Assembly: GCA_965645245.1 (NCBI GenBank) | Contig: OZ287069.1 | Span: 1,984,001-2,048,000 of the forward strand | DNA length: 64,000 nt | From: Massalongia carnosa | Lineage: Eukaryota | Direction of reading: 5' to 3' | Part shown: in pieces, positions 4,383 to 43,300 of the stretch | Layout of the letters: every line of letters starts with the position of its first letter | Numbering within the stretch: the first letter of the stretch is position 1 | The notes under the pieces: model-generated | What the model saw: the letters and a program-made list of their open reading frames with translations, nothing else | Told to the model about the DNA's origin: nothing | Database searches by the model: none | Translations under genes and position numbers: made by a program

Positions 4383-5737
4383 GATTGACTACCTGTTACT
4401 AACTACCAATAGGTATGCAAAGGCAGACCCTGCAGATGCAGGTACTGCATCAAATAATACAGAGTCCAGTGCAGCACAAACCTATTTTCCTTTCGGAGCA
4501 GCAGATGGATGTATTTGGCCAAGTAAAAGTTACGATGATTGAAGAAGCGGTTCTGAGTTAATTAGTTTAAGCCCGTGGCTTATTCTTGACGTTGGTCTCA
4601 TGAAGATCTGAGGTCTGCCTGGCCTCCTTCCTGGCGTCCAGATTGACGTATTACATAAGGCGACTATACTCTGTATCTCGCCCGTAGCTAGGTAAATACT
4701 TTCCTACATATAGGGAAAGGTGACTAGTGTGTTCTTTCAGACTCTTAAGCACCGGAGGGAATTGGTCTCTACACGAATTTGCATCTTGCTTCTCAGGCCT
4801 CCTAGTTGCAAGATCCATCTGCCCTTATAATTTTGTTTTCTGCGTTCCCTTGAGTTTTTGGTGTCTTTTAAACATAACGCTAAAGCGAGAACACGCGCCC
4901 AGCAAAATATTTAGCCCGGAATAGTTGCATGTCTTTTGCTCTAGGCTCTCTACAGTTTCGTTTCCCTGCCTACTGGTTAACTTATCGCATGTAGCCGGCG
5001 GAACTGTTGGCATGCTGCGCGCTTCTTCCAATTCCAATTTCCATTTGATAGAACAAGATACTGTTCTGCTGTGATTCATTCGTGGCAGCATGGAGATTCC
5101 ATATCTTAATATATATATCTACAGCTGTCCATCTGGTTGCATAAAGCTGGAAAGTATAAGTTTGCTGATACTCACCGAGGTAACACCATCAGGATCCGGA
5201 CCTACATGGTAAGCGCCGCCATACATGAATCATTGCACAAACATCTTCTGCATCAAGTGTAAGATCGTGTCCTCTTAAGGTCCTAGATGGGTAATTCTAG
5301 TGCTATATCTCATTTGTATTTCTGTTGTAAATTATCTTCACGGATTGTTCAGAGCATCACAGAGTTATTTGGTTGGAAGCCCTGCCGCAACAGCACTCAC
5401 TTAATATCTAGAGACCAAGTATTCGATCACAAGCCAAAGATTTTGCTTGCAGCTATGAAATTAAAGTACGGGATTTGTGCAGCGTCTTCCCCTTGACACC
5501 TAAGATAAGATACAGCTTTTGAGGCTCAAGAGTGCTGTCGTGAAGCAAAATGCTACACCCAGCGCCGCGGGGAGTAACCTCCTAAATCTCGGAAAGGCCA
5601 CGACGCTATCAACCTAAGCAACAAGATAGTCAACCTGTAGGAGCTTGGATACAGATTGTAAGCTTTCTTGCTTCTCACGGAGTTACAGAGTACATCGAGC
5701 CTTAATTCCCTCAGTGTTTCGCCAAGCCGTCTTCAGG

Positions 5738-6009
5738 TGTTGAATATCCAATTCCTACCAGCACAATGAACACCTATCAGTTCAATGAACATAGCACCTA
5801 CGGCTGCCCTAGATGGACAGATGATCTACGGAAACCGTAGATGCCGCATTAGGCTTAGTCCCAAGATAAGATAAGATCACCTCGCTTAGAGGGGTGACCA
5901 GTAATAGGAAAAGATTGCTGCATAGCAACTCTTCATCCTTAACATCACGGTCATACATACCTTTATTATTACATAGCCATATAGCCATAGTCATATACCT
6001 ATTTCAACG
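5738..6009 (+). repeat. 5' LTR (272 bp)
   Basis: TGTTGAA...TTCAACG. It differs from the 3' LTR at 4 positions by my manual alignment and contains the hairpin ATCTACGG-AAA-CCGTAGAT (5824-5842). Confidence 0.97.
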
Positions 6010-6023
6010 GGTTATGAGCCCGG
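6010..6023 (+). promoter_or_regulatory. Primer-binding site complementary to the anticodon stem-loop of initiator tRNA-Met (half-tRNA priming)
   Basis: GGTTATGAGCCCGG directly after the LTR. Its reverse complement CCGGGCTCATAACC is a CAT anticodon loop with its stem, the same PBS type as yeast Ty5 and Drosophila copia. Confidence 0.9.
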
Positions 6024-6260
6024 AAGGGTGCTATCGATTTAAAACGAATCGAAGCTTTTAATCCGCAGCATCGCAGTGCAATCAGCTAAGCATCGTTCCT
6101 ATTCAATGAATCGTAGACACATGACTAAAATCTTTCTGTGTCTTTAGAAACGATCCCTCAAAACACATCAATCAGTTCTCTCTTCTGTACACAGCGATTT
6201 CTTGTCAGAAGCACAAAAATTGCGTGTTAGAAAGAGCATGAACACATTGATCGTACTACA

Positions 6261-6711
6261 CCGAAGCCCTCGGACACCAAAGAGCTTGCTAAGCTCGATG
6301 GTCGAAGGCACCCAAGTCCTCGGACACCAAAGACCTTGCTAAGCTCGATGGTCGAAGGCAATCAAGTCCTCGGACACCAAAGACCTTGCTAAGCTCGATG
6401 GTCGAAGGCAACCAAGTCCTCGGACACCAAAGACCTTGCTAAGCTCGATGGTCGAAGGCAACCAAGTCCTCGGACACCAAAGACCTTGCTAAGCTCGATG
6501 GTCGAAGGCAACCAAGTCCTCGGACACCAAAGAGCTTGCTAAGCTCGATGGTCGAAGGCAACCAAGTCCTCGGACACCAAAGAGCTTGCTAAGCTCGATG
6601 GTCGAAGGCAATCAAGTCCTCGGACACCAAAGAGCTTGCTAAGCTCGATGGTCGAAGGCACCCAAGTCCTCGGACACCAAAAGAGCTCGCTAAGCTCGAT
6701 GGTCGATGGCA
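6261..6711 (+). repeat. Tandem array of nine 50-bp units in the retrotransposon 5' leader, plus a degenerate tenth copy at about 6806-6856
   Basis: Consensus ACCAAGTCCTCGGACACCAAAGA(G/C)CTTGCTAAGCTCGATGGTCGAAGGCA. Units start at 6261, 6311, 6361, 6411, 6461, 6511, 6561, 6611 and 6661; the last has a 1-bp insertion. Confidence 0.97.
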
Positions 6712-7206
6712 AAAAAGTATATTGCTGGGCCTGAGCGCCCCATTGGTACAAATATCATCAAAGCGTCAGTTTCAACCGCGATTGAATTCTGGACACGCAA
6801 AAATACAAAATCCATCGGACATCAAAGAGCTTAGTAAACTCATTGATCGAAGGCACAAAGACCTTTCTTTTTGGCAATTATGCCTCATTAAGGCACTGGG
6901 TGAGATTGTGCGGCAGTTGCCACTTATTATTTAATCGGCCCAAGGCCGGTTAAATCAAATTGGAAGAACCCTGCGCTCAATTTCCTTTTGGTCAATTGGA
7001 CCCTTGAAAAAGCCTAAGTTGAAATTCTCATCATGGCAAACAAGCATGTTAAGCAAACAGGTTTCTCTGTTGAGACATCAGAGTGGACACTGGCTAAGGA
7101 GGGACAGTCTTTTCCTTGTCTATAAGAAAGGTCACAGATCCACATTCTTTCAGTCACTACTTATACAAGTTTCTCGCCTTGTTCAATTGCTCCCCATTCT
7201 CCCATT

Positions 7207-8124
7207 ATGTCTATCATAGATACGTCACATCTTTTGGAGAAGGCCGAAAGATATTCGGCATGGGCAAGCTATACGAAGGGCATTCTGCTCAAGAATAACT
7301 GCGAAGGAGCCATTCTAGAGAATCAATCAGAAATCACCGCTGAAACCATCAAGGAAGGTTTAATATAAGCAGGCTTCGACGCCAAAGGTCTTTCTGTCAG
7401 CATCTTGGTAAAAGAGCTGCGTGACGAGAAGAATAGACAGAAGGCCGAGATGACCAAGGCTATAGGAATCATTCACGGATTAGTTGCGGAGTGCCATTAC
7501 AGCCTCATCGACAACAAGAATGCGGCAGAAATGTGGAAAATCCTGAAGGATAGATTCCAAGATATAGCACCAATGAGCATCAGCGACATCATTCTGAAGG
7601 TTAGTTCTAAGAAGATGACTGACTTCGAGACCACCAGCCTATACTGTGCAGAGTACGAGAGCGCTTTAAACAAAATTAAAGGAATGCTGGACGACAAGGC
7701 CAAAGTGGATGTGCATACCGTGGAGTTCATGCTTCAGGGAATGATGCTGGGTAACACCACAGACGTCTATTCCCCATTGATAGCCCAACTTCGACGAGAT
7801 TGGACACACGAAACCACAAACCTGTCGGAAGCAATGAAGACCATTGTTGCTTATTCTGTCAACATGAAAAACACCAAGGCACTTCATATCAGCACACCTG
7901 ACTCGAGAGGTCGAGCCCCATTTGGGACCTGCACCTTCTCTGAATGTGTCGAGAGAAAGAACACTCGTCATTGGCCAGATAACTGTTGGCAGAAGTTTCC
8001 ACAGCTAAAAAGACATAGAAGTTCGCTCGAATCCGGAAGAGCAAAGAAACAAAAGACTACCTCGTCAGAAACGAAGGCGGACTTACCTCATACATCACCC
8101 AACATTCCAACGGTGAGTAGTTGA
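7207..8124 (+). pseudogene. gag: Copia gag, interrupted by one in-frame TAA at 7366-7368
   Basis: ATG 7207 MSIIDTSHLLEKAERYSAWASYTKGILLKNNC resembles the copia Gag N-terminus (Y..W...IL). The frame continues past the TAA into AAEMWKILKDRF (UBN2/gag-like) and a CX4CX7HX4C knuckle, ending at TGA 8122-8124. Confidence 0.85.
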
Positions 8125-11100
8125 GTCACACAGGTCATGGCCACAAGACTGCAAAAAGTCATGACCATGACGAATCTGAACAAGAACTCGTGGTTATTGG
8201 ACAGCGCTGCAGATATGCACGTATGCAACCACAGATACTCGTTCACTGACTATACGAGTTACTCCACTGATCTAGCAGGGTCAACGTCCACAGGAACGTC
8301 GCCAGGAAGAGGAACCATTCATAAGACATTGATCTTGGAGGACGGCTTACCCTCGTCGATACTGATTCTTAACAATGTTCTCTACATTCCTCAATGTCCG
8401 GTGAACCTTGTGAGTTTGGGAATGCTGAATCAACACGATATCTTCTATGACAATTCAAACTGGAGACTGTTCATGGGATCCACTGCAAAAGTCATAGGGC
8501 ACGTACCGAGAGTTGACAACAACTTCATGCTACAGACCGTTGACACCCCAGATATGAGGATGCATTTGAGCAAAGTGGACGAGGACACCTATCAAGGACT
8601 GGACGTCACTATCTGTCAAATATCTGTCAAATCAAAACTCACTACATGGCATGCAAGGCTTGGTCATCTCAACATTCCGACGTGTCGAAAATATTTGAAA
8701 ACGCTAGACATAACGTACGATGACGATATCAACCAAGGTTGGTTTTGCCATGCATGCGAAATGGGAAAAGCCAAAAAGATATACAACCGAACACAGCAAG
8801 AGAGGGCCACAGAGCTCTTTCAAAAGATAAACTCTGACCTAGTGGGACCAATCAAGCCAGCAGGACTTCTTGAAGAACTTTACTTCTTCACTTTCACCTG
8901 TGATGCTAGCAGATACACTCATGTCTATACCGGACACAAGAAGAGTGAATGGTTTGATCACTTGTTGACGTACTACAGCATGGCCCAAAACAAATCTGGA
9001 AAGGCTAAACCCATAAGTAGTTTTCGCACTGACTTCGGTACGGAGCTTCGCAGTCACAAGTCAGACGTTTGGTTCCTGGAACAAGGCATAACGTTTGAAC
9101 CAGCTGCTCCATACTCTCAAGAGGAAAACGGAGTCGCGGAACGAATGGGCAGAACCATCATGGACATGACAAGATGCAGTGTCATTGCCGGAGACATTCC
9201 CGACTACTTGTGGGCAGAAGTAGTTCTAGCCATGGTTCACACCAAGAACGTCAGACCAACCAACGCCTTGGCAGGTAAAACCCCGTATGAGATCTTCGAG
9301 AAGAAGTCACCTAAGCTGGATCACCTGAGAATTCTCGGATCCACAGTCTATGCGTTGATTCACGAAGAAGAGCGAAAAGGACTAAACAGCAAGGCTGCTA
9401 AATTTTCTCCGAGGGCTCAGAAAGGAATCCTGTGTGGATATAACGGAAGCACCATCTATCGCGTCTTTATGGAAAAAGACTACAAGGTCATCAGGGTCAA
9501 GGACTTACGGATTCATGAAGACGCCACATTCAAAGATGGGACCGATCTACCCACGTACGATTCCATAATGATTCAAAACGAGAAAGATAACACACTCGAA
9601 ATCAGTCCCACTCCTTCAAAAGACCAACCAGAGTTGAATTCCAAGATAAGTGAAATCCCCAAACGTAGACGAGGTAGACCCAGAAAACACGCCCATGTCG
9701 CACAAGTGCTGAGTCTCCTGTCAAATAAGGCATTAAGTGAACCAGAACACATCCCCACACTGGCAGATAGAGACGAAGAAGACCCACTCATACTTCTGGC
9801 CAAAGAACTGGAAATAGAGGGAGCAGCATACCTGAACGACTACGATGCGTTCATTCAGTCAGACACAGCTGAGCCACAAACATATCATCAAGCAATGAAC
9901 TCCAAATACGCAAACGAATGGAGTCTGGCAATGGATGAGAAGATCAAAAGTCTGCTGGAGAAAAACACCTGGGATACATTATCCACCGAGTCCATGGAAC
10001 CCGGACATATAGTCTTGAGTGGCAAATGGGTATTCAAGCTGAAACGGGACGTAAATGGAAAGATCGTTCGCTTTAAAGCCAGATGGGTTGTCAAAGGATA
10101 TCTACAACAATACGGAGTAGATTTCGATCAAACCTTTGCATCTGTGGTCAAACCAATGGCTTTTCGCTTGCTATTCGCGTTAGCTGCCCATCATGATCTG
10201 GACATCGAGCAACTGGATATAGTGACAGCTTTTCTGAACGGTTTCATCGATCAACTCATCTATGTCCACATGCCGAAAGGATATGACACAGCTGGCATGG
10301 TGTGCAGGCTGAATAAAGCTCTGTACGGTTTGAAACAGTCTCCGCGTCTCTGGTATGAACGACTATCAGCTTTTCTATTGAGCAAATTAGGACTGGAGAA
10401 ACACCACGCAGATCATAGCATCTTCGTCACATCTCAAGGGATAAAAGGACCCATTGTTACCTCTTTCGTTGACGATTTGAACATCATAGGCCCAAAGGGT
10501 TCCCCGATGATCACCGAAGTCAAGAAACAGCTCAAGCTAGCTTTCAAGATGGTAGACATGGGACCAATCAGCTACTATTTAGGCCTCAAAGTCGAACGAG
10601 ATCGAGTCAACAAAACCATAAAGCTATCTCAACCAGCCTATATCGAGAAGGTATTGGAAAGATTCCATATGCAAACCGCAAAGACAACAAACACTCCCAT
10701 GCGAGAAGGCTGTCTCTTCATCAATGAATCTCAGGCCTCCGACAAGGACATAAAGCAATATCAAACCATGGTTGGATCCATCATGTTCGCAATGATAGAA
10801 ACCAGGCCAGACATAGCTTTCGCAACGTCCGTAGTCAGTCGCCATGCAAAGAATCCAGGCAAAACACATATGGAAGCGGCCAAACACATTCTCAGATACC
10901 TTAGCGGTACCAAGAATAGAGGCATCACCTTCGGTGGGGGAGATTTATGTATACAAGGATATTCTGACTCTGACTGGGCCGGAGACAAAGAGCAGCGAAA
11001 ATCCACCTCGGGTTATGTGTTCATGCTGAACAATGGACCAATAAGCTGGTGTTCCAAAAGACAAACGACCGTCGCATTGTCATCAACCGAAGCAGAGTAT

Positions 11101-11460
11101 ATGGCACTCGCCTTAGCAGCAAAGGAGGCTACATGGCTACGTTTACTGATGACTAAACTTGGATTGATGACTTCTGATGACGGATCCCCGACAATAAACG
11201 TGTTAAGAGGAGAAGGCACAATTGCATTGAAAGGCGACAACCAAAGCGCCATAGCACTGGCCAATAATCCCGTATTACACTCCAGGACCAAGCATATCGA
11301 CATTCAGCACCACTTTATACGAAACGAGGTGCTAGAAGGAAGAATCGACCTCACCTATGTTCCGACCGAAGACATGTTTGCAGATGGACTGACAAAACCC
11401 CTTACGCACGTCAAGTTCTTCTCCTTTATCAGACAGCTCAACATGGACAAACAGACATGA
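8125..11460 (+). CDS. pol: Copia pol polyprotein (protease, integrase, reverse transcriptase, RNase H), uninterrupted and in frame with gag
   Basis: PR WLLDSAADMH; integrase zinc finger WHARLGH...CHAC; DDE residues in SDLVGP / RTDFGTE / NGVAER; RT KARWVVKG, LYGLKQSPRLW, FVDDL; RNase H YSDSDWAG, STEAEY, GDNQSA, ADGLTK. First ATG at 8137. Confidence 0.97.
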   Translation, partial: VTQVMATRLQKVMTMTNLNKNSWLLDSAADMHVCNHRYSFTDYTSYSTDLAGSTSTGTSPGRGTIHKTLILEDGLPSSILILNNVLYIPQCPVNLVSLGMLNQHDIFYDNSNWRLFMGSTAKVIGHVPRVDNNFMLQTVDTPDMRMHLSKVDEDTYQGLDVTICQISVKSKLTTWHARLGHLNIPTCRKYLKTLDITYDDDINQGWFCHACEMGKAKKIYNRTQQERATELFQKINSDLVGPIKPAGLLEELYFFTFTCDASRYTHVYTGHKKSEWFDHLLTYYSMAQNKSGKAKPISSFRTDFGTELRSHKSDVWFLEQGITFEPAAPYSQEENGVAERMGRTIMDMTRCSVIAGDIPDYLWAEVVLAMVHTKNVRPTNALAGKTPYEIFEKKSPKLDHLRILGSTVYALIHEEERKGLNSKAAKFSPRAQKGILCGYNGSTIYRVFMEKDYKVIRVKDLRIHEDATFKDGTDLPTYDSIMIQNEKDNTLEISPTPSKDQPELNSKISEIPKRRRGRPRKHAHVAQVLSLLSNKALSEPEHIPTLADRDEEDPLILLAKELEIEGAAYLNDYDAFIQSDTAEPQTYHQAMNSKYANEWSLAMDEKIKSLLEKNTWDTLSTESMEPGHIVLSGKWVFKLKRDVNGKIVRFKARWVVKGYLQQYGVDFDQTFASVVKPMAFRLLFALAAHHDLDIEQLDIVTAFLNGFIDQLIYVHMPKGYDTAGMVCRLNKALYGLKQSPRLWYERLSAFLLSKLGLEKHHADHSIFVTSQGIKGPIVTSFVDDLNIIGPKGSPMITEVKKQLKLAFKMVDMGPISYYLGLKVERDRVNKTIKLSQPAYIEKVLERFHMQTAKTTNTPMREGCLFINESQASDKDIKQYQTMVGSIMFAMIETRPDIAFATSVVSRHAKNPGKTHMEAAKHILRYLSGTKNRGITFGGGDLCIQGYSDSDWAGDKEQRKSTSGYVFMLNNGPISWCSKRQTTVALSSTEAEYMALALAAKEATWLRLLMTKLGLMTSDDGSPTINVLRGEGTIALKGDNQSAIALANNPVLHSRTKHIDIQHHFIRNEVLEGRIDLTYVPTEDMFADGLTKPLTHVKFFSFIRQLNMDKQT

Positions 11461-11519
11461 GAGGTTAAGAAGTTCAATCACGGTTGAATCTACGATGGAA
11501 ACAAGTACTGGTAGGACTT

Positions 11520-11528
11520 GAGGGGGGG
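11520..11528 (+). promoter_or_regulatory. Polypurine tract (plus-strand primer)
   Basis: (TT)GAGGGGGGG immediately before the TGTTG of the 3' LTR. Confidence 0.9.
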
Positions 11529-11800
11529 TGTTGAATATCCAATTCCTACCAGCACAATGAACACCTATCAGTTCAATGAACATAGCACCTACGGCTGCCC
11601 TAGATTGACAGATGATCTACGGAAACCGTAGATGCCGCATTAGGCTTAGTCCCAAGATAAGATAAGATCACATCGCTTAGAAGGGTGACCAGTAATAGGA
11701 AAAGATTGCTGCATAGCAACTCTTCATCCTTAACATCACGGTCATACATACCTTTATTATTACATAGCCATATAGCCATAGTCATATACCTATTTCAACA
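11529..11800 (+). repeat. 3' LTR (272 bp)
   Basis: TGTTGAA...TTCAACA with 7-bp terminal inverted repeats, followed by the TSD TCAGG. Confidence 0.97.
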
Positions 11801-12752
11801 TCAGGACGTATCTCGAACGCCAGCTCTCAACCTAATGTTAATACTTCACAGTCAAAGCGTAGATCAATGGTTTGTCATGAAGGGAAAACTCATCCGAAAA
11901 TTGAAATCCTAACGCATATTCGTAACTAGCGAAACGCGTCGATTCTATCTACCTAGATTGCAGGATTGAATCCTGGGTAGCTTAATGCTAAAATCCGGGT
12001 TGAAGGGTCCAAGCTTCAATTCGATCGACCGCACAGTCAACCCTTAGCATTGGTCGTTATTTGGGCCGCCAGATATTTGTCCAAGTCATGAAGCTGATCA
12101 TCGGAACAATTTTGTAGTCAAGCCAGGGTATGGATCAATTAGTTGTATGCCTTAGATGCTATTGGAGCAATCGTTAATCATATATAGCTGCTTCGTCAGA
12201 GGTGGTCAGAAATTATATATTTGGTTAGCTTGCCACTGTGAGCACTTTATAATAAATATCTGAATGGCAAAAACCAGATGGATCCAAAGCCGCCACCATA
12301 GCAATAACAACAGTGAATACGCTTTTAAAGGGTGTCCATCAGATGTGCCGATATTTTCTCCCATAGTCTTGTAAAAGAGAAGCCAATGAAAAAGGCGCCA
12401 TTTTATTCAGCTAAAGGCCGGTCTGACTCTGAGAGGCGAAGGTCAGATGATCCCAATACCGAGGGCGCAAACGGATAATGAAGGAAGGCAATTGAGGGCC
12501 CAGACTGAGCGCAGATAGGATCGTCGTGGTCGCTTTGCAGACCATTGCAGCCAGCTGCAGAATAACGTGGTGTGTACCTACAAACATATTAAGAGCCCAT
12601 CGGACATGAAGCTAGGAACTCCAATGTCCACATCACAGACTTAGAATAATGTTTAAAGCCGCAAGTTGATCAACGTCTACAGGCGTGTTTTTGGAGATCG
12701 AAGAACCATGTCGGAGGAAAGAGACGGGACTAAGCACGAAAGCGATTAGTTA

Positions 12753-17900: not shown

Positions 17901-19701
17901 ACAAGTATCGGGTAGGTTCCTTCGATTCTTTCCAGCCCTTTAGCTGAGCTTGTTTGCGCCCACCATGTCATCAGTCACTTCCTCCTCGCGCTGGTAGGTT
18001 TACAGCCCGTTTCTCTCATCATCCTGCCAGCCTTCATACAACGATCCTTCCTAGGATCAGGCCATAACTCTCCGAGATTTCTCCAGTAATGCTTGTTCTT
18101 GAAGCCCCTTTTCTACTCCGGATAACCATATGCTAGGAACCTACCCTTACTTCCAAAAACGAATCTACAACGTTTTCAACCTCGCGAAGATGCTTATAGT
18201 TTATGTCTGTTACGTTGGTTACCGGTTTCTTCCATGGTCTTGACTTAAAGATGTTTGATAACATTCTTTCGGGATCGAATGCACCTTATAATAAAAGGGA
18301 TATGATGTCTTTAAAAATGCAGCAATAGACTGCTTGTAATATGTAGTAATATTTCCGTAGGTCATTCCCTGCGCAGTAGATATCAGCTTCAGACGCCCAA
18401 GAAATGTTTAGAACAAGACACCGACAAGGCCTTCCTCCAGCCACGCCTTGATTCTCAAATTTACCCTTGGACAGCCAGTAATTTAGGCTGCCACGAAGGA
18501 CAGCGTCCTTATCGACCTCACAATCCGACATAATGGGGAGCATAGGGTTAAAGGGCGCCTTGGATGTGACTAGGTGGAGTTTTGTAAGCAGTTCAGAGCC
18601 TTTTCAGTACGCTAGCGCGTTGCTTGTGAAGCTTACTGTATCGTCTGACATGTAGACGATTGGCTTCCCAATCAATAAAGGATGAGCGAGCGTTACAAGA
18701 AACATCAATAAGAGGAAGGGGGTCGTTCGAGTTATGAAAGTAAAATGCGTAATGAATACAGGCCTTATAGAAACATGAAGAACTCGGAGAACGAATACTT
18801 TTGAGATCATTGGTGCACTAATACTAATATAGTGTTGACGATTTTATGTGGGAAACCCCAATTTATGGCATACAGGACGAGCGTTCTGATCGATAACCTT
18901 AATATAAGCATCATAGTGAAAGCCAGGCCATTGAAAAGCCTGTCCGCTGCCGGCAACGCCTTATATTGGTTGAGATGGATGGAAAAGCTAGGTAGGTAGC
19001 TCGTCGAGTTTCAACGACAGGTGGACATACTTTATGTGCAGCTTTGAAAAGCTATTATCATAATGCATGATAATATACAAAGCGCAAGACCGTTCAATAC
19101 TTCCAAACTTTTAGGAGAACGAGAAGGAGAAACAGTACAGCTGGAAAATAACAGAAAAAGAAGTCGGATTGAATCTAGTTGCGAAGCTAGGCCAGCACGC
19201 TGAGGATGGGGAACAGGTTTTTCACAAGAGAATTTAGTAATAATTTTTGACGAAAGACTTGATGCAGCAGGCCTTCCTGTCATTGCAGAGATTGCTCAAA
19301 GTCTCCCTGCGATTGGTAAGGTACGGAAGGGTTAGAAATGCCTTCAGAACTGATTTTACGCTCCTTCATCTGAGTAATATTTGCGCAGTGATTGTGATCA
19401 ATGTCTAAAGCTGAGCTACTTTTTTGGTATGTTCGACCTCAGACATCCTCCGGGGTATGGATTAAGAGCTTCCTAGCTGTTGATAGGACGAGGATAATGA
19501 GACGCTAGCGATAGGGTCAAGGAGGCCTTTGCCCTAAAATGTCTCGATTTAGCCTAACCAGCAGTCGCTGACTAACTAAGCTAGTTGACGTGGGGATATC
19601 AAACCGGATTTTTTTCGGTGATCAAATGTGTTCATCGAAAATGATATGATGTATGTAACCACAACCCAAAGGAGTGCCTTCGGGTTCGATCAGAATATAT
19701 C

Positions 19702-21658
19702 ATGGCCACAGGTAAGGTACAAACTAGGGCCCAGCGCGGTACCTGCGACTTAGAGGCTTGTGCTAAAATCTGGTTCAGTACGAATATGCGTGTGTGGAGA
19801 CGAGGGGGTGGGAAAGAGTTCTCTTATCACGTCGCTCGTGAAGGATGTATTTGTTACAACTAAGATCCAGCCCGTCCTCCCTCAAATTACCCTGCCACCA
19901 AGCATTGGGACGTCAGAGAACCTCACCACAACAATCATCGATACTTCCGCGTTGCCGCAAGAGCGCCCTATTCTTAATAAGGAAATCCGCAAATCCAATG
20001 TCATTCTGCTGGTATACTCGGATCATTATAGCTATGAGCGAGTTGCGCTTTTTTGGATGCCGCATTTCAGATCCCTGGGCGTCAATGTCCCGGTCGTGCT
20101 GTGCGCAAATAAATCCGACCTAGCGGCAAATGTAAACACAGACCAGGTGGTGGAGGATGAGATGCTGCCCGTCATGGCTGAGTTCAAGGAGCTCGATTCC
20201 TGCATTCGAACTAGCGCTAAAGAGCACCACAACGTCAACGAGGTGTTTTTCTTATGTCAGAAAGCGGTCACGAATCCAATAGCTCCTCTTTTCGATCCCA
20301 AAGAATCAAAGTTGAAGCCAGCCTGTGTCGCCGCGTTGCAGCGAGTTTTCTACCTTTGTGACCAAGACCAAGATGGCTACCTCAGTGATAAGGAAATACA
20401 TGACTTTCAAACCAAATGCTTTGGCAAACCTTTGAGTGATGACGACCTCAAAAATATAAAGCACGCTATTCAAAAGTATTCTGCGGATTCTGTCGGTGAA
20501 AAGGGTATCAATCAAGACGGTTTCGTCCTCCTTAATAAGATATTTGCCGAGAAAGGCCGACACGAAACCATCTGGATCATTCTCCGCACGTTTCATTATA
20601 CTGATAGCCTGAGCCTACGAGACAGCTTCCTGCATCCAAAATTTGAAGTCCCTCCTTACACTTCTGCCGAGCTCTCTCCTGCAGGCTACCGCTTCTTCGT
20701 GGACCTATTCCTCTTATTCGACAAGGACAACGACGGTGGCCTCAACTCATCCGAGCTCACTGCCCTCTTCGCACCAACCCCGGGCCTCCCACCTTCCTGG
20801 CTTGACTCCGCCTTCCCCTCCTCCACTGTGCGCAATGAAGCCGGCCACATCACCCTTCAAGGCTGGCTCGCCCAATGGAGCATGACAACCTTTTTTTCTC
20901 CCTCTACCACCCTCGCCTACCTTGCCTATCTCGGATTCACCCCCCCTGACCCCCGCGCTACCACAACGGCAGCCTTGCACCTGACCAAGTCCCGCAAGCG
21001 TCGAAAACGCCCTACTCGCGTTGAGCGTAATGTGTTCCTGGCTTACATCCTCGGCGCCCCGGGCGCTGGGAAATCCGCCCTCCTCGACGCTTTTCTCTCT
21101 CGGCCCTTCTCGGCCACCTACCATCCGACAATCAAGCCACGCACGGCCGTCAACAGCGTCGAGCTCCCGGGCGGCAGAGAGTGCACGTTAATCCTCGAGG
21201 AGCTCGGCGAGCTGGAGCCGGCCATCTTGGACAATGCCGCCAAGTTGGCCGCGTGCGACATCCTGGTCTACTGCTACGACTCTTCGAACCCCGACTCATT
21301 CGCGCACCTCCCCGCCCTGCGCGCCTCCCATAAACCGGCCCTCGACGACCTGCCGGCGCTGTACGTGGCGCTTAAGGCCGACCGCGACAAAGCGACGCAG
21401 CGCGCCGAAATACAGCCCGAGGAGTACGCCGCAGCGCTGGGCATGAGCAAGCCCCTGCACGTCAGCGTCACGTGGGGAAGCGTGTCGGAGCTATTCGTGC
21501 GCGTTGCCGAGGCAGGCATGTGGCCCGCGACGGCGTTTCCGAAGAGTGAGGACGGTGACGGTGGCCTGGGTCGCACGAGCCTCTACATTACGCTCGGCGC
21601 GGTGGTGTGCGCGGGAGCGGCGGCGCTTGCGATTTGGAGGCGCGTGAGCAAGGATTGA
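19702..21658 (+). CDS. GEM1: Mitochondrial Rho GTPase Miro/Gem1 (intron 19712-19778)
   Basis: [21 protein letters not shown]-loop, EF hands ([24 protein letters not shown]), second GTPase GAPGAGKS, C-terminal transmembrane anchor. Confidence 0.97.
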
Positions 21659-40389: not shown

Positions 40390-43300
40390 ATGATTGCCGA
40401 TTTGTGGAGGTACTTTTTCGAGAACGATGTCGAGTCTTTCCGGCAATCGCTGGCCATTGCCACTCTCAGTGTATCGACCTCCTTAAAAGGCAGCCACAGC
40501 GCAAGGGGAGTTCATGCAGGTAATGTAGGAAGTCCGTCAGCAGTTCTGGCGACTTCTCCAAACCCGGGGAGCAGGGGCAAAAGGCCTTTTAATGGAAATT
40601 CGTCAGGATTCTCAGGTCCAAGCTCCAGCTCAAAGTTGACCGTGAGCCCAAATTTAACGCGAGCCGACATCAATGGAAAAGATCCACATGGCGTTACTTT
40701 ATTACACAACATCGCATCTTCTACCGCAGAGACCGCTTCCCAATTCGCTGCTGCTCTCCTGCAATTTCCATTGCTAGATCTCTATATTCAGGATAAGGAA
40801 AGCGGATGGACAGCTCTGCACCGAGCCTTGTATTCGGGAAATATCACCATTGCACGCGCATTGATATGTAAGGATACACAAGACGCTCTGGATCACGTCA
40901 ACACGGGGCCAGCTTATATAGTCGGTGGCCTTATCAAGATCAAAGATCATGAAGGCAATAGCCCATTTGATGTCTACGGCGCCTCAACGGCAAAAAGAAG
41001 CATCCGAGAAGGTTTGGCCATCCCGCTTCTTGACGCCGATAGGGACGATGAAGAAACCAACGCCCTTCCTGGAGCAAGCTGTGAGGACAACAACGGTAGC
41101 ACACGGAGTCAGGTGGTCAACCCAAGTACTTGCATCAACGGTGACGAGGTATTCACCTTTGGGAGCAACAAAAACTTTACTCTAGGCTTTGGCGACGAGG
41201 ACGATCGTCAATATCCCGAGCGAGTGTTTCTGAAACGTCCAGATCATTTATTACAACGTTTCCATCACCAATATCAATCTCGAAACCCCGAAAACCAAAA
41301 TCTTGATTCTGTACTACCTACCAAGTCACCGCCTGCGCTGATTCAGTATCGGCCCATAACCATTCAAGATGTTCAGCTTTCGAAGCTTCACTCTGCGATT
41401 CTGACATCTGATCCTGAAGCCAACCTCTATATTTGCGGGTTTGGGCCTGGGGGTCGCATTGGAACCGGCGACGAGGCAACAAGATTCCATTTCGTTTGCA
41501 TTCATGGGGGAGGCTTGGCTGATAAAAAGGTTATACATGTTGGTCTCGGACAAAACCATACCATCGCCATCTCGAGTCAAGGTGAACCCTTTACGTGGGG
41601 CAGTAATTCCTTCGGGCAGCTCGGCTATGCTTCACCTAGTTTAAGTCTCCAAGACAAGGAGCCTATTCAATTGTTGCCACGTCAGATTTTTGGGTCTGTG
41701 AAACGCGAGTTTGTTATCGGAGCTGCCGCGTCTCGAGTGCATAGCGTGATACATACTGCGAGCTCTTTGTTCACATTCGGAAAAAACGAGGGTCAACTTG
41801 GCCTCGTTGATTNNNNNNNNNNNNNNNNNNNNNNNNNNNNNNNNNNNNNNNNNNNNNNNNNNNNNNNNNNNNNNNNNNNNNNNNNNNNNNNNNNNNNNNN
41901 NNNNNNNNNNNNNNNNNNNNNNNNNNNNNNNNNNNNNNNNNNNNNNNNNNNNNNNNNNNNNNNNNNNNNNNNNNNNNNNNNNNNNNNNNNNNNNNNNNNN
42001 NNNNNNNNNNNNCTCCCACTCTTTGCTTAAAAACAGCCATTCATCTACCCGATACAAAGACGCTGATAACCACGTCTGTAAAGTCACGTCTGGGGGGGAC
42101 ACGCTATGTGCCATGTCGAGCATGGGCGATGTGTTTACTGTTAATGTAAGCCAAAAAGCGCGCCCAAGTTCAGTTTCGTCTTCAACAACGAACCCCTCTA
42201 AAATTCGCGGGGCTTTATCCAATCCACAACGAGTCTGGTCTTTGAGAAAAGGCCATATGGCAGTTCGAGATGTTGCCGTTGGCCAAGATGGGTCCATCAT
42301 CATATGTACAGATTCTGGATCTGTGTGGAGGCGCGTTAAGCGGACAACTGTTAAAGATGCAAACGCGCCGGCCGCAGCCGAATACAAAGCGAAAGACTTC
42401 AAGTTTTCTAGGGTTGGTGGGTTGACGAGAGTTACAGCTGTTAGAAGTAGTGCTTTCGGTACGTTTGCTGCCGTGCGGCGAGACTGTGACGTATTGCAGA
42501 CCCAGCTCTTTGTGGATAGTAAAAGTCTATGGAAGGATTTTTACAATCTGCTGCCATTCCAAGCGCTTGGTGCGGAAGACGAGGACTCTGATACCGAGGA
42601 GCCTGCGTTGCGCTTTTGGATACCCAGAAAGCCAGTCAACGACCCTGCTACCATCCGCCATGCCGTCTTAACAATCTCGAACCTTGAAAAAAAGGTTATG
42701 ACGCTGTTAGAGGATACCAAAGGGTTCCAGCAATCAACGTGTGATCTCAAATTCAAGACTACAGCATCTGATGTCGTTCTCCCTGTACATGAGTTTGTTT
42801 TATCAGGGCGCAGCGAGGTCATGAGGGGTGCCTTGAGTACATTCCGTCAGAGTTATTACTTTAGCCTATCAGATGTCATGACAATTGAGTATGATAGCGA
42901 TGGTAAGGTGTTAATCTCATTTCCAGGGGCTGACTTCATCACGGTTCTCAACATCGTTTTGTACATTTATACCGACACCGTGGTTGACGTTTGGCGTCAC
43001 ACCAGGAATTCGCCGGGTTTAGCGTCGAGATATCGCCAGATACGATTGGAACTCATGAATATTGCAAACCATCTTGAGATTACAGGGCTTGAACAGGCCG
43101 CAAGAGTCATGATTGAGCCATCGAAAACATTGCATCAAGACATGGAACGTGCAATTCGTCAGCCAGAATATTTCCAGACAGGAGACGTGGAGATTGAATT
43201 GGATGGAAAAAACATGAGGGTACACAGCGCTCTGATGTGTCAACGATGCCCTTTCTTTGAAGGACTCTTCCACGGCCGTGCAGGCGGCAGTTGGCTTTCT

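Follow-up and report, generated by a model that had tools for sequence, protein, structure and literature searches.

Known gag-pol stops and the Massalongia carnosa element

An in-frame UGA between gag and pol is already known in fungal Ty1/copia retrotransposons from two elements, Tca2 (pCal) of Candida albicans and VdLTRE5 of Verticillium dahliae. In Tca2, gag and pol share one frame, Pol is translated from the gag-pol RNA, and a structure has been proposed 3' of the stop (PMC2194720); VdLTRE5 comes from a filamentous ascomycete and has a GAG-UGA-POL arrangement for which a leaky stop was proposed (PMC3441728). We compared both, by arrangement and not by sequence, with a complete Ty1/copia long terminal repeat (LTR) retrotransposon found at 5738-11800, with a 5-bp target duplication, in a 64,000-nucleotide stretch of the Massalongia carnosa assembly GCA_965645245.1 (contig OZ287069.1, positions 1,984,001 to 2,048,000 of the forward strand; hereafter the window, in whose own numbering all positions are given). 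Comparison with related sequences shows that the TGA at 8122-8124, which separates gag from pol, is conserved both in this Ty1/copia family and more widely among a clade of ascomycete copia elements. Programmed UGA readthrough at this TGA, favoured by a TGA-CT context and probably by a 9-bp hairpin, would be the best explanation of the junction, and we give it about even chances of being correct.

The window element differs in arrangement from each of the closest known systems. Tca2 has a yeast host and a proposed pseudoknot in place of the simple hairpin found here, and its junction alone gave no readthrough in Saccharomyces cerevisiae (PMC2194720). VdLTRE5 was described from two copies, its arrangement being called very rare; no CARYYA motif was found in it, and the accessible text reports no conservation analysis, context or structure (PMC3441728). 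This publication nevertheless removes the novelty for Pezizomycotina that the initial annotation of the window had supposed. Outside fungi, the murine leukaemia virus gag-pol signal shares with the window junction an in-frame stop, an 8-nt spacer and a compact RNA structure (PMC13517186), but it combines UAG with an H-type pseudoknot, whereas the window element has UGA and a plain hairpin. Type II readthrough sites (UGA-CUA or UGA-CGG, as in alphaviruses and Colorado tick fever virus) likewise have UGA followed by C and a stem-loop about 9-16 nt past the stop, but their stem-loops span 78-177 nt as against 34 nt here, and the third base past the stop is C in our element, not A (PMC13517186). 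The fission-yeast Ty3/gypsy elements Tj1, Tcry1 and Tosmo1-3 also carry an in-frame TGA between gag and pol, set in a short, strictly conserved context with CT directly past the stop; their superfamily is a different one, however, the codon before their stop is GAA, and the accessible text mentions no hairpin (bioRxiv 10.1101/2022.12.06.519325).

To this known arrangement the present comparisons would add that the stop is kept across a wide range of Gag clusters from ascomycete copia elements, that its sense neighbours point to TGA and Trp, and that a small hairpin is kept in one sister family. None of these additions was found reported in the literature searched, most subscription journals being outside its reach, and for filamentous fungi only the Verticillium paper turned up.

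A stop codon conserved between gag and pol

The junction comprises the following features.

7207..8124, + strand: gag open reading frame (ORF), 305 codons from the ATG at 7207, with a CX4CX7HX5C knuckle and the ending PTVSS-TGA; PF14223 at 21.3 bits
7366..7368, + strand: TAA inside gag, private to the window copy (CAA, Gln, in other copies)
8113..8118, + strand: GTGAGT, the Val-Ser codons of the conserved PTVSS and a possible splice donor
8122..8124, + strand: in-frame TGA between gag and pol, the proposed readthrough site
8125..8132, + strand: 8-nt spacer GTCACACA, in which G8125 is private to the window copy and most copies have C
8133..8141, + strand: hairpin 5' arm GGTCATGGC
8142..8157, + strand: 16-nt loop, 9 of its 16 bases common to the sister family
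8158..8166, + strand: hairpin 3' arm GTCATGACC
8125..11460, + strand: pol, open throughout, with protease (DSA at 8200), integrase, reverse transcriptase and RNase H
8113..8535, + strand: 423-nt GT..AG stretch, in frame, covering the stop and the whole protease domain and absent from some contigs of other runs

The stop, the shared frame, the nucleotide context and the hairpin arms are all conserved, and the sequence past the stop changes in a protein-like way. That gag and pol lie in one frame split only by the TGA had been read from the letters in the initial annotation, and our ORF check agrees, with pol open to 11460 and the protease DSA motif starting at 8200, 25 codons past the stop. Every junction coordinate given there, for the TGA, the spacer, the arms, the loop and the ATGs, also proved right when checked against the sequence.

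Related proteins stop where the window Gag stops. A Gag search among proteins of similar length (12 matches from 703 candidates) returned P0001, a 305-residue protein 99% identical to the window Gag, in whose cluster all 10 members that reach the Gag C-terminus end in PTVSS as the window Gag does (15 of 16 members listed; the other 5 are cut earlier). The same ending closes Gags of the P0004 cluster at 65% identity (7 with PTVSS and 1 with PTVSG among the 15 of 37 members listed) and four of five in the P0007 cluster at 45% identity. Three sister families share these last five residues with the window Gag, while the 25 residues before them differ. Ascomycota are the source of the nearest Atlas clusters. 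We aligned the junction in 44 sequences, picked because they cover the zinc knuckle onwards or are known to cross the junction, with those truncated earlier left out. Of these, 26 are Gag ORFs whose end falls precisely on the homologous column; in 4 the end lies a few residues away from that column, and the other 14 continue past it.

Fused Gag-Pol proteins did not appear, with no matches among 2750 candidates of 535-2000 residues. An exhaustive profile-free search with Gag plus the 69 residues past the stop, run against 1.84 billion representatives, gave 175 matches, and among the 150 listed only two exceed 377 residues: P0115 (536 residues), a distant single-ORF copia fragment, and P0141 (2080 residues), which matches only downstream of the stop. 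No fused Gag-Pol longer than 1000 residues with a related Gag was thus found in the protein collections among these listed matches. Two metagenome scans and one viral scan yielded no confirmed relative; one of the metagenome patterns contained Trp and could not match TGA copies.

Nucleotide copies came from contigs of runs X1, X4 and X6, from three coded organisms, for which 40 of the 101 rows of differing letters were listed, leaving a minority variant at 8122-8124 possible in the other 61; stretches uncovered in run X7 carry no weight either way. These contigs bear on the concern, raised in the initial annotation, that a second in-frame stop inside gag marks the copy as decaying and that the TGA may be decay too. 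The second stop is real (TAA at 7366-7368), but it is private to the window copy: T is replaced by C at 7366 in X1 (279806.5 of 281335.5 in depth), X4 (2 of 2) and X6 (96.5 of 96.5), and P0001 has Gln there. The junction TGA, in contrast, is kept in the element family and in related families. On these comparisons it is not decay, because all 10 family copies reaching the site, the sister family and distant families all stop there.

The context of the stop is better preserved in the family than in the window copy. At 8125 the contigs of other runs replace G with C (X1, 8832.5 of 11165.8 in depth; X4, 2.23 of 2.23; X6, 62.4 of 62.4). Record 14 of X6 spans 8036-8214 with 8125 as its sole difference, and the TGA is therefore kept there. 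Since most copies have C at 8125, the family reads TGA-CT; G8125 in the window copy replaces the leaky TGA-C with TGA-G and gives Val instead of Leu as the next residue, where P0002, P0032, P0184 and P0188 have Leu directly after the site. In distant families the residue past the site is Gln (CAR) in 9 spanning ORFs and Leu in 1, and C therefore follows the stop there too. UGA-CU is a motif of fungal and animal cellular genes, and both in HeLa cells and in Ustilago maydis it suffices by itself for efficient readthrough (PMC4207609). A leaky context, UGA followed by C or CU, is thus present in most family copies as TGA-CT but not in the window copy, which has TGA-GT.

The initial annotation had named a sense codon at this position in other copies as refuting readthrough. 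Such codons do occur in a minority of copies, but all 16 ORFs that span the stop position (14 aligned and 2 found later) are short or truncated ORFs of broken copies. They carry Trp in 11 cases, Cys in 2, Ser in 2 and an unclear residue in 1. Trp, Cys and Ser (TCA) are each one step from TGA, and Cys neighbours TGA only; Arg (CGA), as easily reached as Trp, occurs in none of the 16. The absence of Arg hints that Trp is the tolerated residue, which would fit a UGA read by tRNA-Trp. Beyond the site, residues vary conservatively (QPKVLSVE, QPKILAIE, QPRVLSVE), and the distance from the stop to the protease motif differs between families by whole codons (14 as against 22). With its conservative replacements, whole-codon length differences and single-step sense codons, the stretch past the stop evolves as if translated in the gag frame.

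One single broken copy, P0002, a relative of window 7207-8250, has TGG at the stop and GCG for the preceding Val codon. The stretch with the hairpin 3' arm is lost in it, after which it continues in the +2 frame.

The hairpin past the stop

The 9-bp stem pairs 8133-8141 with 8158-8166 around a 16-nt loop, with one G-U pair (8140/8159) and with both downstream ATGs (8137 and 8161) inside the arms, as had been described from the letters. It begins 8 nt past the stop, the distance of known readthrough stimulators, whose spacers typically measure at least 8 nt (PMC13517186). The 50 nt of 8131-8180 fold at -16.3 kcal/mol (z = -3.91), a stability reached by 1 of 200 dinucleotide-preserving shuffles, and the 50 nt starting 9 nt past the codon rank as the 11th most stable among 1398 in-frame positions of the element.

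For a sister family we reconstructed the junction from two overlapping reading frames, using the first 35 residues of P0195 (+2 frame; P0161 pol cluster) together with P0184 (frame 0), and the joint solution of both frames fixes nearly every base of this P0184/P0161 family junction. It reads TGA CTC ACA, as in most copies of the window family, followed by the arms at equal codon spacing. Eight of the nine pairs of the stem are unchanged, the ninth (8140/8159) goes from G-U to A-U, and two extra pairs extend the stem outward. The minimum-energy fold of the sister family is exactly the stem first proposed, into which the 50-nt stretch of the window folds as well. Bases common to the two families number 17 of 18 in the arms, 9 of 16 in the loop and 20 of 33 in the next 33 nt. 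Where the residue is unchanged, the third codon position is, by hand count, also unchanged at 4 of 4 sites in the spacer and arms, at none of 4 in the loop and at 6 of 11 further downstream, and by our own arithmetic the synonymous contrast of 4/4 against 6/15 corresponds to about p = 0.05. Of the expectation that spacing and stem would be conserved, both parts therefore hold in the sister family, but covariation is limited to the single one-sided change from G-U to A-U.

Other structures fared less well. The alternative 7-bp pairing of 8134-8140 with 8165-8171, noted at the outset, is present in the window but was rejected, with mismatches at 3 of its 7 pairs in the sister family. No pseudoknot partner was found, in that no helix of at least 4 bp from the loop to 8167-8226 occurs at the same place in both families, and an H-type pseudoknot of the murine leukaemia virus kind was rejected for want of a loop partner common to both. 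Rfam gave no match at E up to 10 on 7900-8700. A helping role of the plain hairpin in readthrough is plausible from these comparisons.

From the conserved features we infer a mechanism in which most ribosomes would stop at the UGA at 8122-8124 and release Gag, while a small share would decode it with a near-cognate tRNA, most likely that for Trp, and continue in the same frame into protease, integrase and reverse transcriptase. The outcome would be a high ratio of Gag to Gag-Pol. The leak would be favoured by the TGA-CT context of the family and probably also by the 9-bp hairpin 8 nt past the stop, which may raise its rate. The structure-stimulated readthrough put forward in the initial annotation is mostly favoured by the comparative tests, although the stimulating role of the structure is something we still infer.

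Several observations weigh against this reading, most of them against the hairpin. The longer 79-nt segment 8122-8200 has a z of only -1.23, with 23 of 200 shuffles as good (not significant), and the minimum-energy fold of the window sequence alone uses the alternative 7-bp stem. No two-sided compensatory change is seen in the stem between the two lineages compared, and the synonymous-site contrast covers 19 sites. The arms encode Val-Met-Thr/Ala twice, and protein constraint or duplication could explain part of their conservation. The nucleotides of the sister family were derived from two different copies, and this family probably resides in the same genome or genomes, thus representing a paralogous lineage and not an independent host. 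At -16 kcal/mol and 34 nt, the hairpin is small next to proven stimulators. With respect to readthrough itself, no sequencing run listed is on record as RNA, the failure of the Tca2 junction sequence to support readthrough on its own in S. cerevisiae (PMC2194720) is a cautionary precedent, and some contigs of other runs lack the stop through a GT..AG joint.

Alternative explanations of the junction

The strongest alternative, which we consider possible but clearly less probable than hairpin-assisted readthrough, is that the short TGA-CT context alone drives readthrough and the hairpin is incidental. The hairpin would then be a duplicated Val-Met-Thr coding motif with the self-pairing palindrome GTCATGAC, or would serve another role such as RNA dimerisation or masking of the two AUGs. 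UGA-CU suffices in U. maydis (PMC4207609), and in the arms one palindrome does occur twice in direct orientation, coding for the same residues each time. Moreover, distant families have a shorter stretch of 14 codons, without Met, between the stop and the protease motif, and the exact hairpin therefore cannot be clade-wide. Yet an incidental hairpin does not sit well with the retention of all four synonymous sites in the spacer and arms while all four in the loop changed, with a sole arm change that preserves pairing, or with a stem that starts at the distance from the stop seen in known stimulators (PMC13517186).

Splicing enters the argument through the 423-nt stretch 8113-8535. In one X1 contig (depth 1018.3), position 8112 is followed by 4 letters and then by 8540, so that 423 nt are lost on balance; an X1 loose end at 8112 continues as the sequence past 8535 with one mismatch; and an X6 joint skips 423 nt with GT..AG ends at a depth of 102.3, flagged 'between: not known'. 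The stretch carries spliceosomal signals, starting at GTGAGT (8113) and ending at CAG (8533-8535) with TTGAC 19 nt before the CAG, and no other in-frame candidate has a branch-like site at the usual acceptor distance. It amounts to 141 codons, and its loss, in frame, removes the stop and the whole protease domain. The joint could reflect alternative splicing or a protease-less deletion subfamily. A 72-nt in-frame mini-intron at 8113-8184 was rejected, with no branch-like site and no joint among those listed.

The protease introns of plant copia elements (EVD, BARE1) and Drosophila copia are comparable, with GT..AG from the end of gag to just past the protease (PMC5580714). In plant copia, splicing shifts the frame and creates the Gag stop (PMC5580714), whereas the Gag of the window element has its own stop, which lies inside the stretch, and the loss is in frame; a frame-shifting splice that creates a Gag stop was thus not found here.

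If the stretch is an intron, it may operate alongside readthrough. Under this doubtful but not negligible combination, readthrough would yield Gag-protease-integrase-reverse transcriptase, and alternative splicing of the 423-nt in-frame intron from a working GTGAGT donor would yield Gag-integrase-reverse transcriptase without protease. That splicing instead accounts for the bypass by itself, with the donor at 8113 and the acceptor at 8533-8535 fusing Gag to integrase and reverse transcriptase, appears somewhat less likely still. The joints in X1 (clean) and X6, the branch-like TTGAC, the conservation of PTVSS where the remaining Gag tail is not conserved, and a location at the position of plant and Drosophila copia introns, the plant ones spanning exactly the protease (PMC5580714), all speak for it. 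However, the joints are contig data from runs not identified as RNA or DNA, and the X6 row carries the flag 'between: not known'. Splicing also cannot be the sole route to Pol, since it would leave the element without protease. The wider clade lacks the donor (endings IDS, ITS and IES) yet keeps the stop, and both the Trp, Cys and Ser neighbours and the protein-like conservation past the stop speak for translation of the stretch. Among the matches listed from the protein collections, no fused ORF without protease was found. A length of 423 nt is also long for an ascomycete intron.

About equally improbable is the separate production of Pol with no fusion, whether by termination-reinitiation or internal initiation at the AUG at 8137 or 8161 or from its own transcript and an internal promoter. 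An AUG does lie 12 nt past the stop, the same Met opens the pol ORF in three families (MATRLQK, MTTTLQK, MTVRLQK), and a minor promoter occurs in the Tca2 junction (PMC2194720). Separate initiation nevertheless gives no reason for a shared frame or for Trp at the site, distant families without a Met between the stop and the protease motif still keep both stop and frame, and the hairpin would bury both AUGs.

That the TGA is a private decay mutation of the window copy is very improbable, since the private TAA at 7366 and the private G8125 adjoining the TGA are outweighed by the stop shared among all 10 family copies that reach the site and among sister and distant families, by a sister-family codon that solves to TGA, and by the lack of a repeat-induced point mutation (RIP) signature in the element (TA/AT 0.66; (CA+TG)/(AC+GT) 1.30). 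RIP was also rejected as the origin of the TGA because, besides the missing signature, TGG to TGA is not the change that RIP favours.

The element as a whole and its significance

Outside the junction, the element has the following features.

5733..5737, + strand: left target-site duplication TCAGG, identical to the 5 bases at 11801-11805
5738..6009, + strand: 5' LTR, starting TG; 273-nt repeat with 3 differences from the 3' LTR
6209..6758, + strand: leader array of 50-nt tandem repeats, between LTR and gag
11514..11528, + strand: polypurine tract, recognised from the sequence
11529..11800, + strand: 3' LTR, TG..CA
11801..11805, + strand: right target-site duplication TCAGG

The two 272-nt LTRs (TG..CA), with 3 differences over the 273-nt repeat and TCAGG on both sides, identify an LTR retrotransposon, and the Pfam domains of pol stand in copia order: the protease barrel PF22936 (residues 23-104), the pre-integrase PF13976 (155-215), the SH3-like PF25597 (393-469) and RVT_2, PF07727 (627-860; E = 7.6e-59). 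Gag scores 21.3 bits against PF14223, below the Pfam cut-off of 27, and its relatives carry PF14223 in precomputed annotation. The window copy inserted recently but is defective, having TAA in gag and TGA-G in place of TGA-C; with a poorer context than the TGA-CT of its family and a broken gag, it is not a working example.

Within the leader array at 6209-6758, overlapping 200-nt copies are 64-100% alike. Another leader stretch, the 79 nt of 7048-7126 upstream of gag, has GT..AG ends and is skipped in one X1 contig (depth 1581.5; 'between: not known'); its size is ordinary for a fungal intron. No second copy of the element was found in the window by blastn, and tblastn with 158 proteins gave one marginal match outside the element, at 19627-19803, to the distant Gag fragment P0067 (E = 4.6e-4, 29% over 63 residues). 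A run of 200 N occupies 41813-42012 of the window.

In the VdLTRE5 paper an in-frame UGA between gag and pol of a copia element was called very rare (PMC3441728), whereas the ending of about 26 Gag clusters at one homologous column suggests that it is the norm in a sizeable clade of such elements in ascomycetes. No measured readthrough signals of mobile elements in filamentous fungi were found in the literature searched, and for recoding research this family offers a compact, comparatively supported candidate signal made up of TGA-CT, an 8-nt spacer and a 9-bp hairpin. If the two routes to Pol both operate, the protease intron of plant and Drosophila copia would have a counterpart in fungi with inverted logic, the unspliced RNA being the one that makes Gag. 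For annotation, copies with this gag-pol stop should not count as decayed on its account, which bears on dating and activity calls for fungal transposons.

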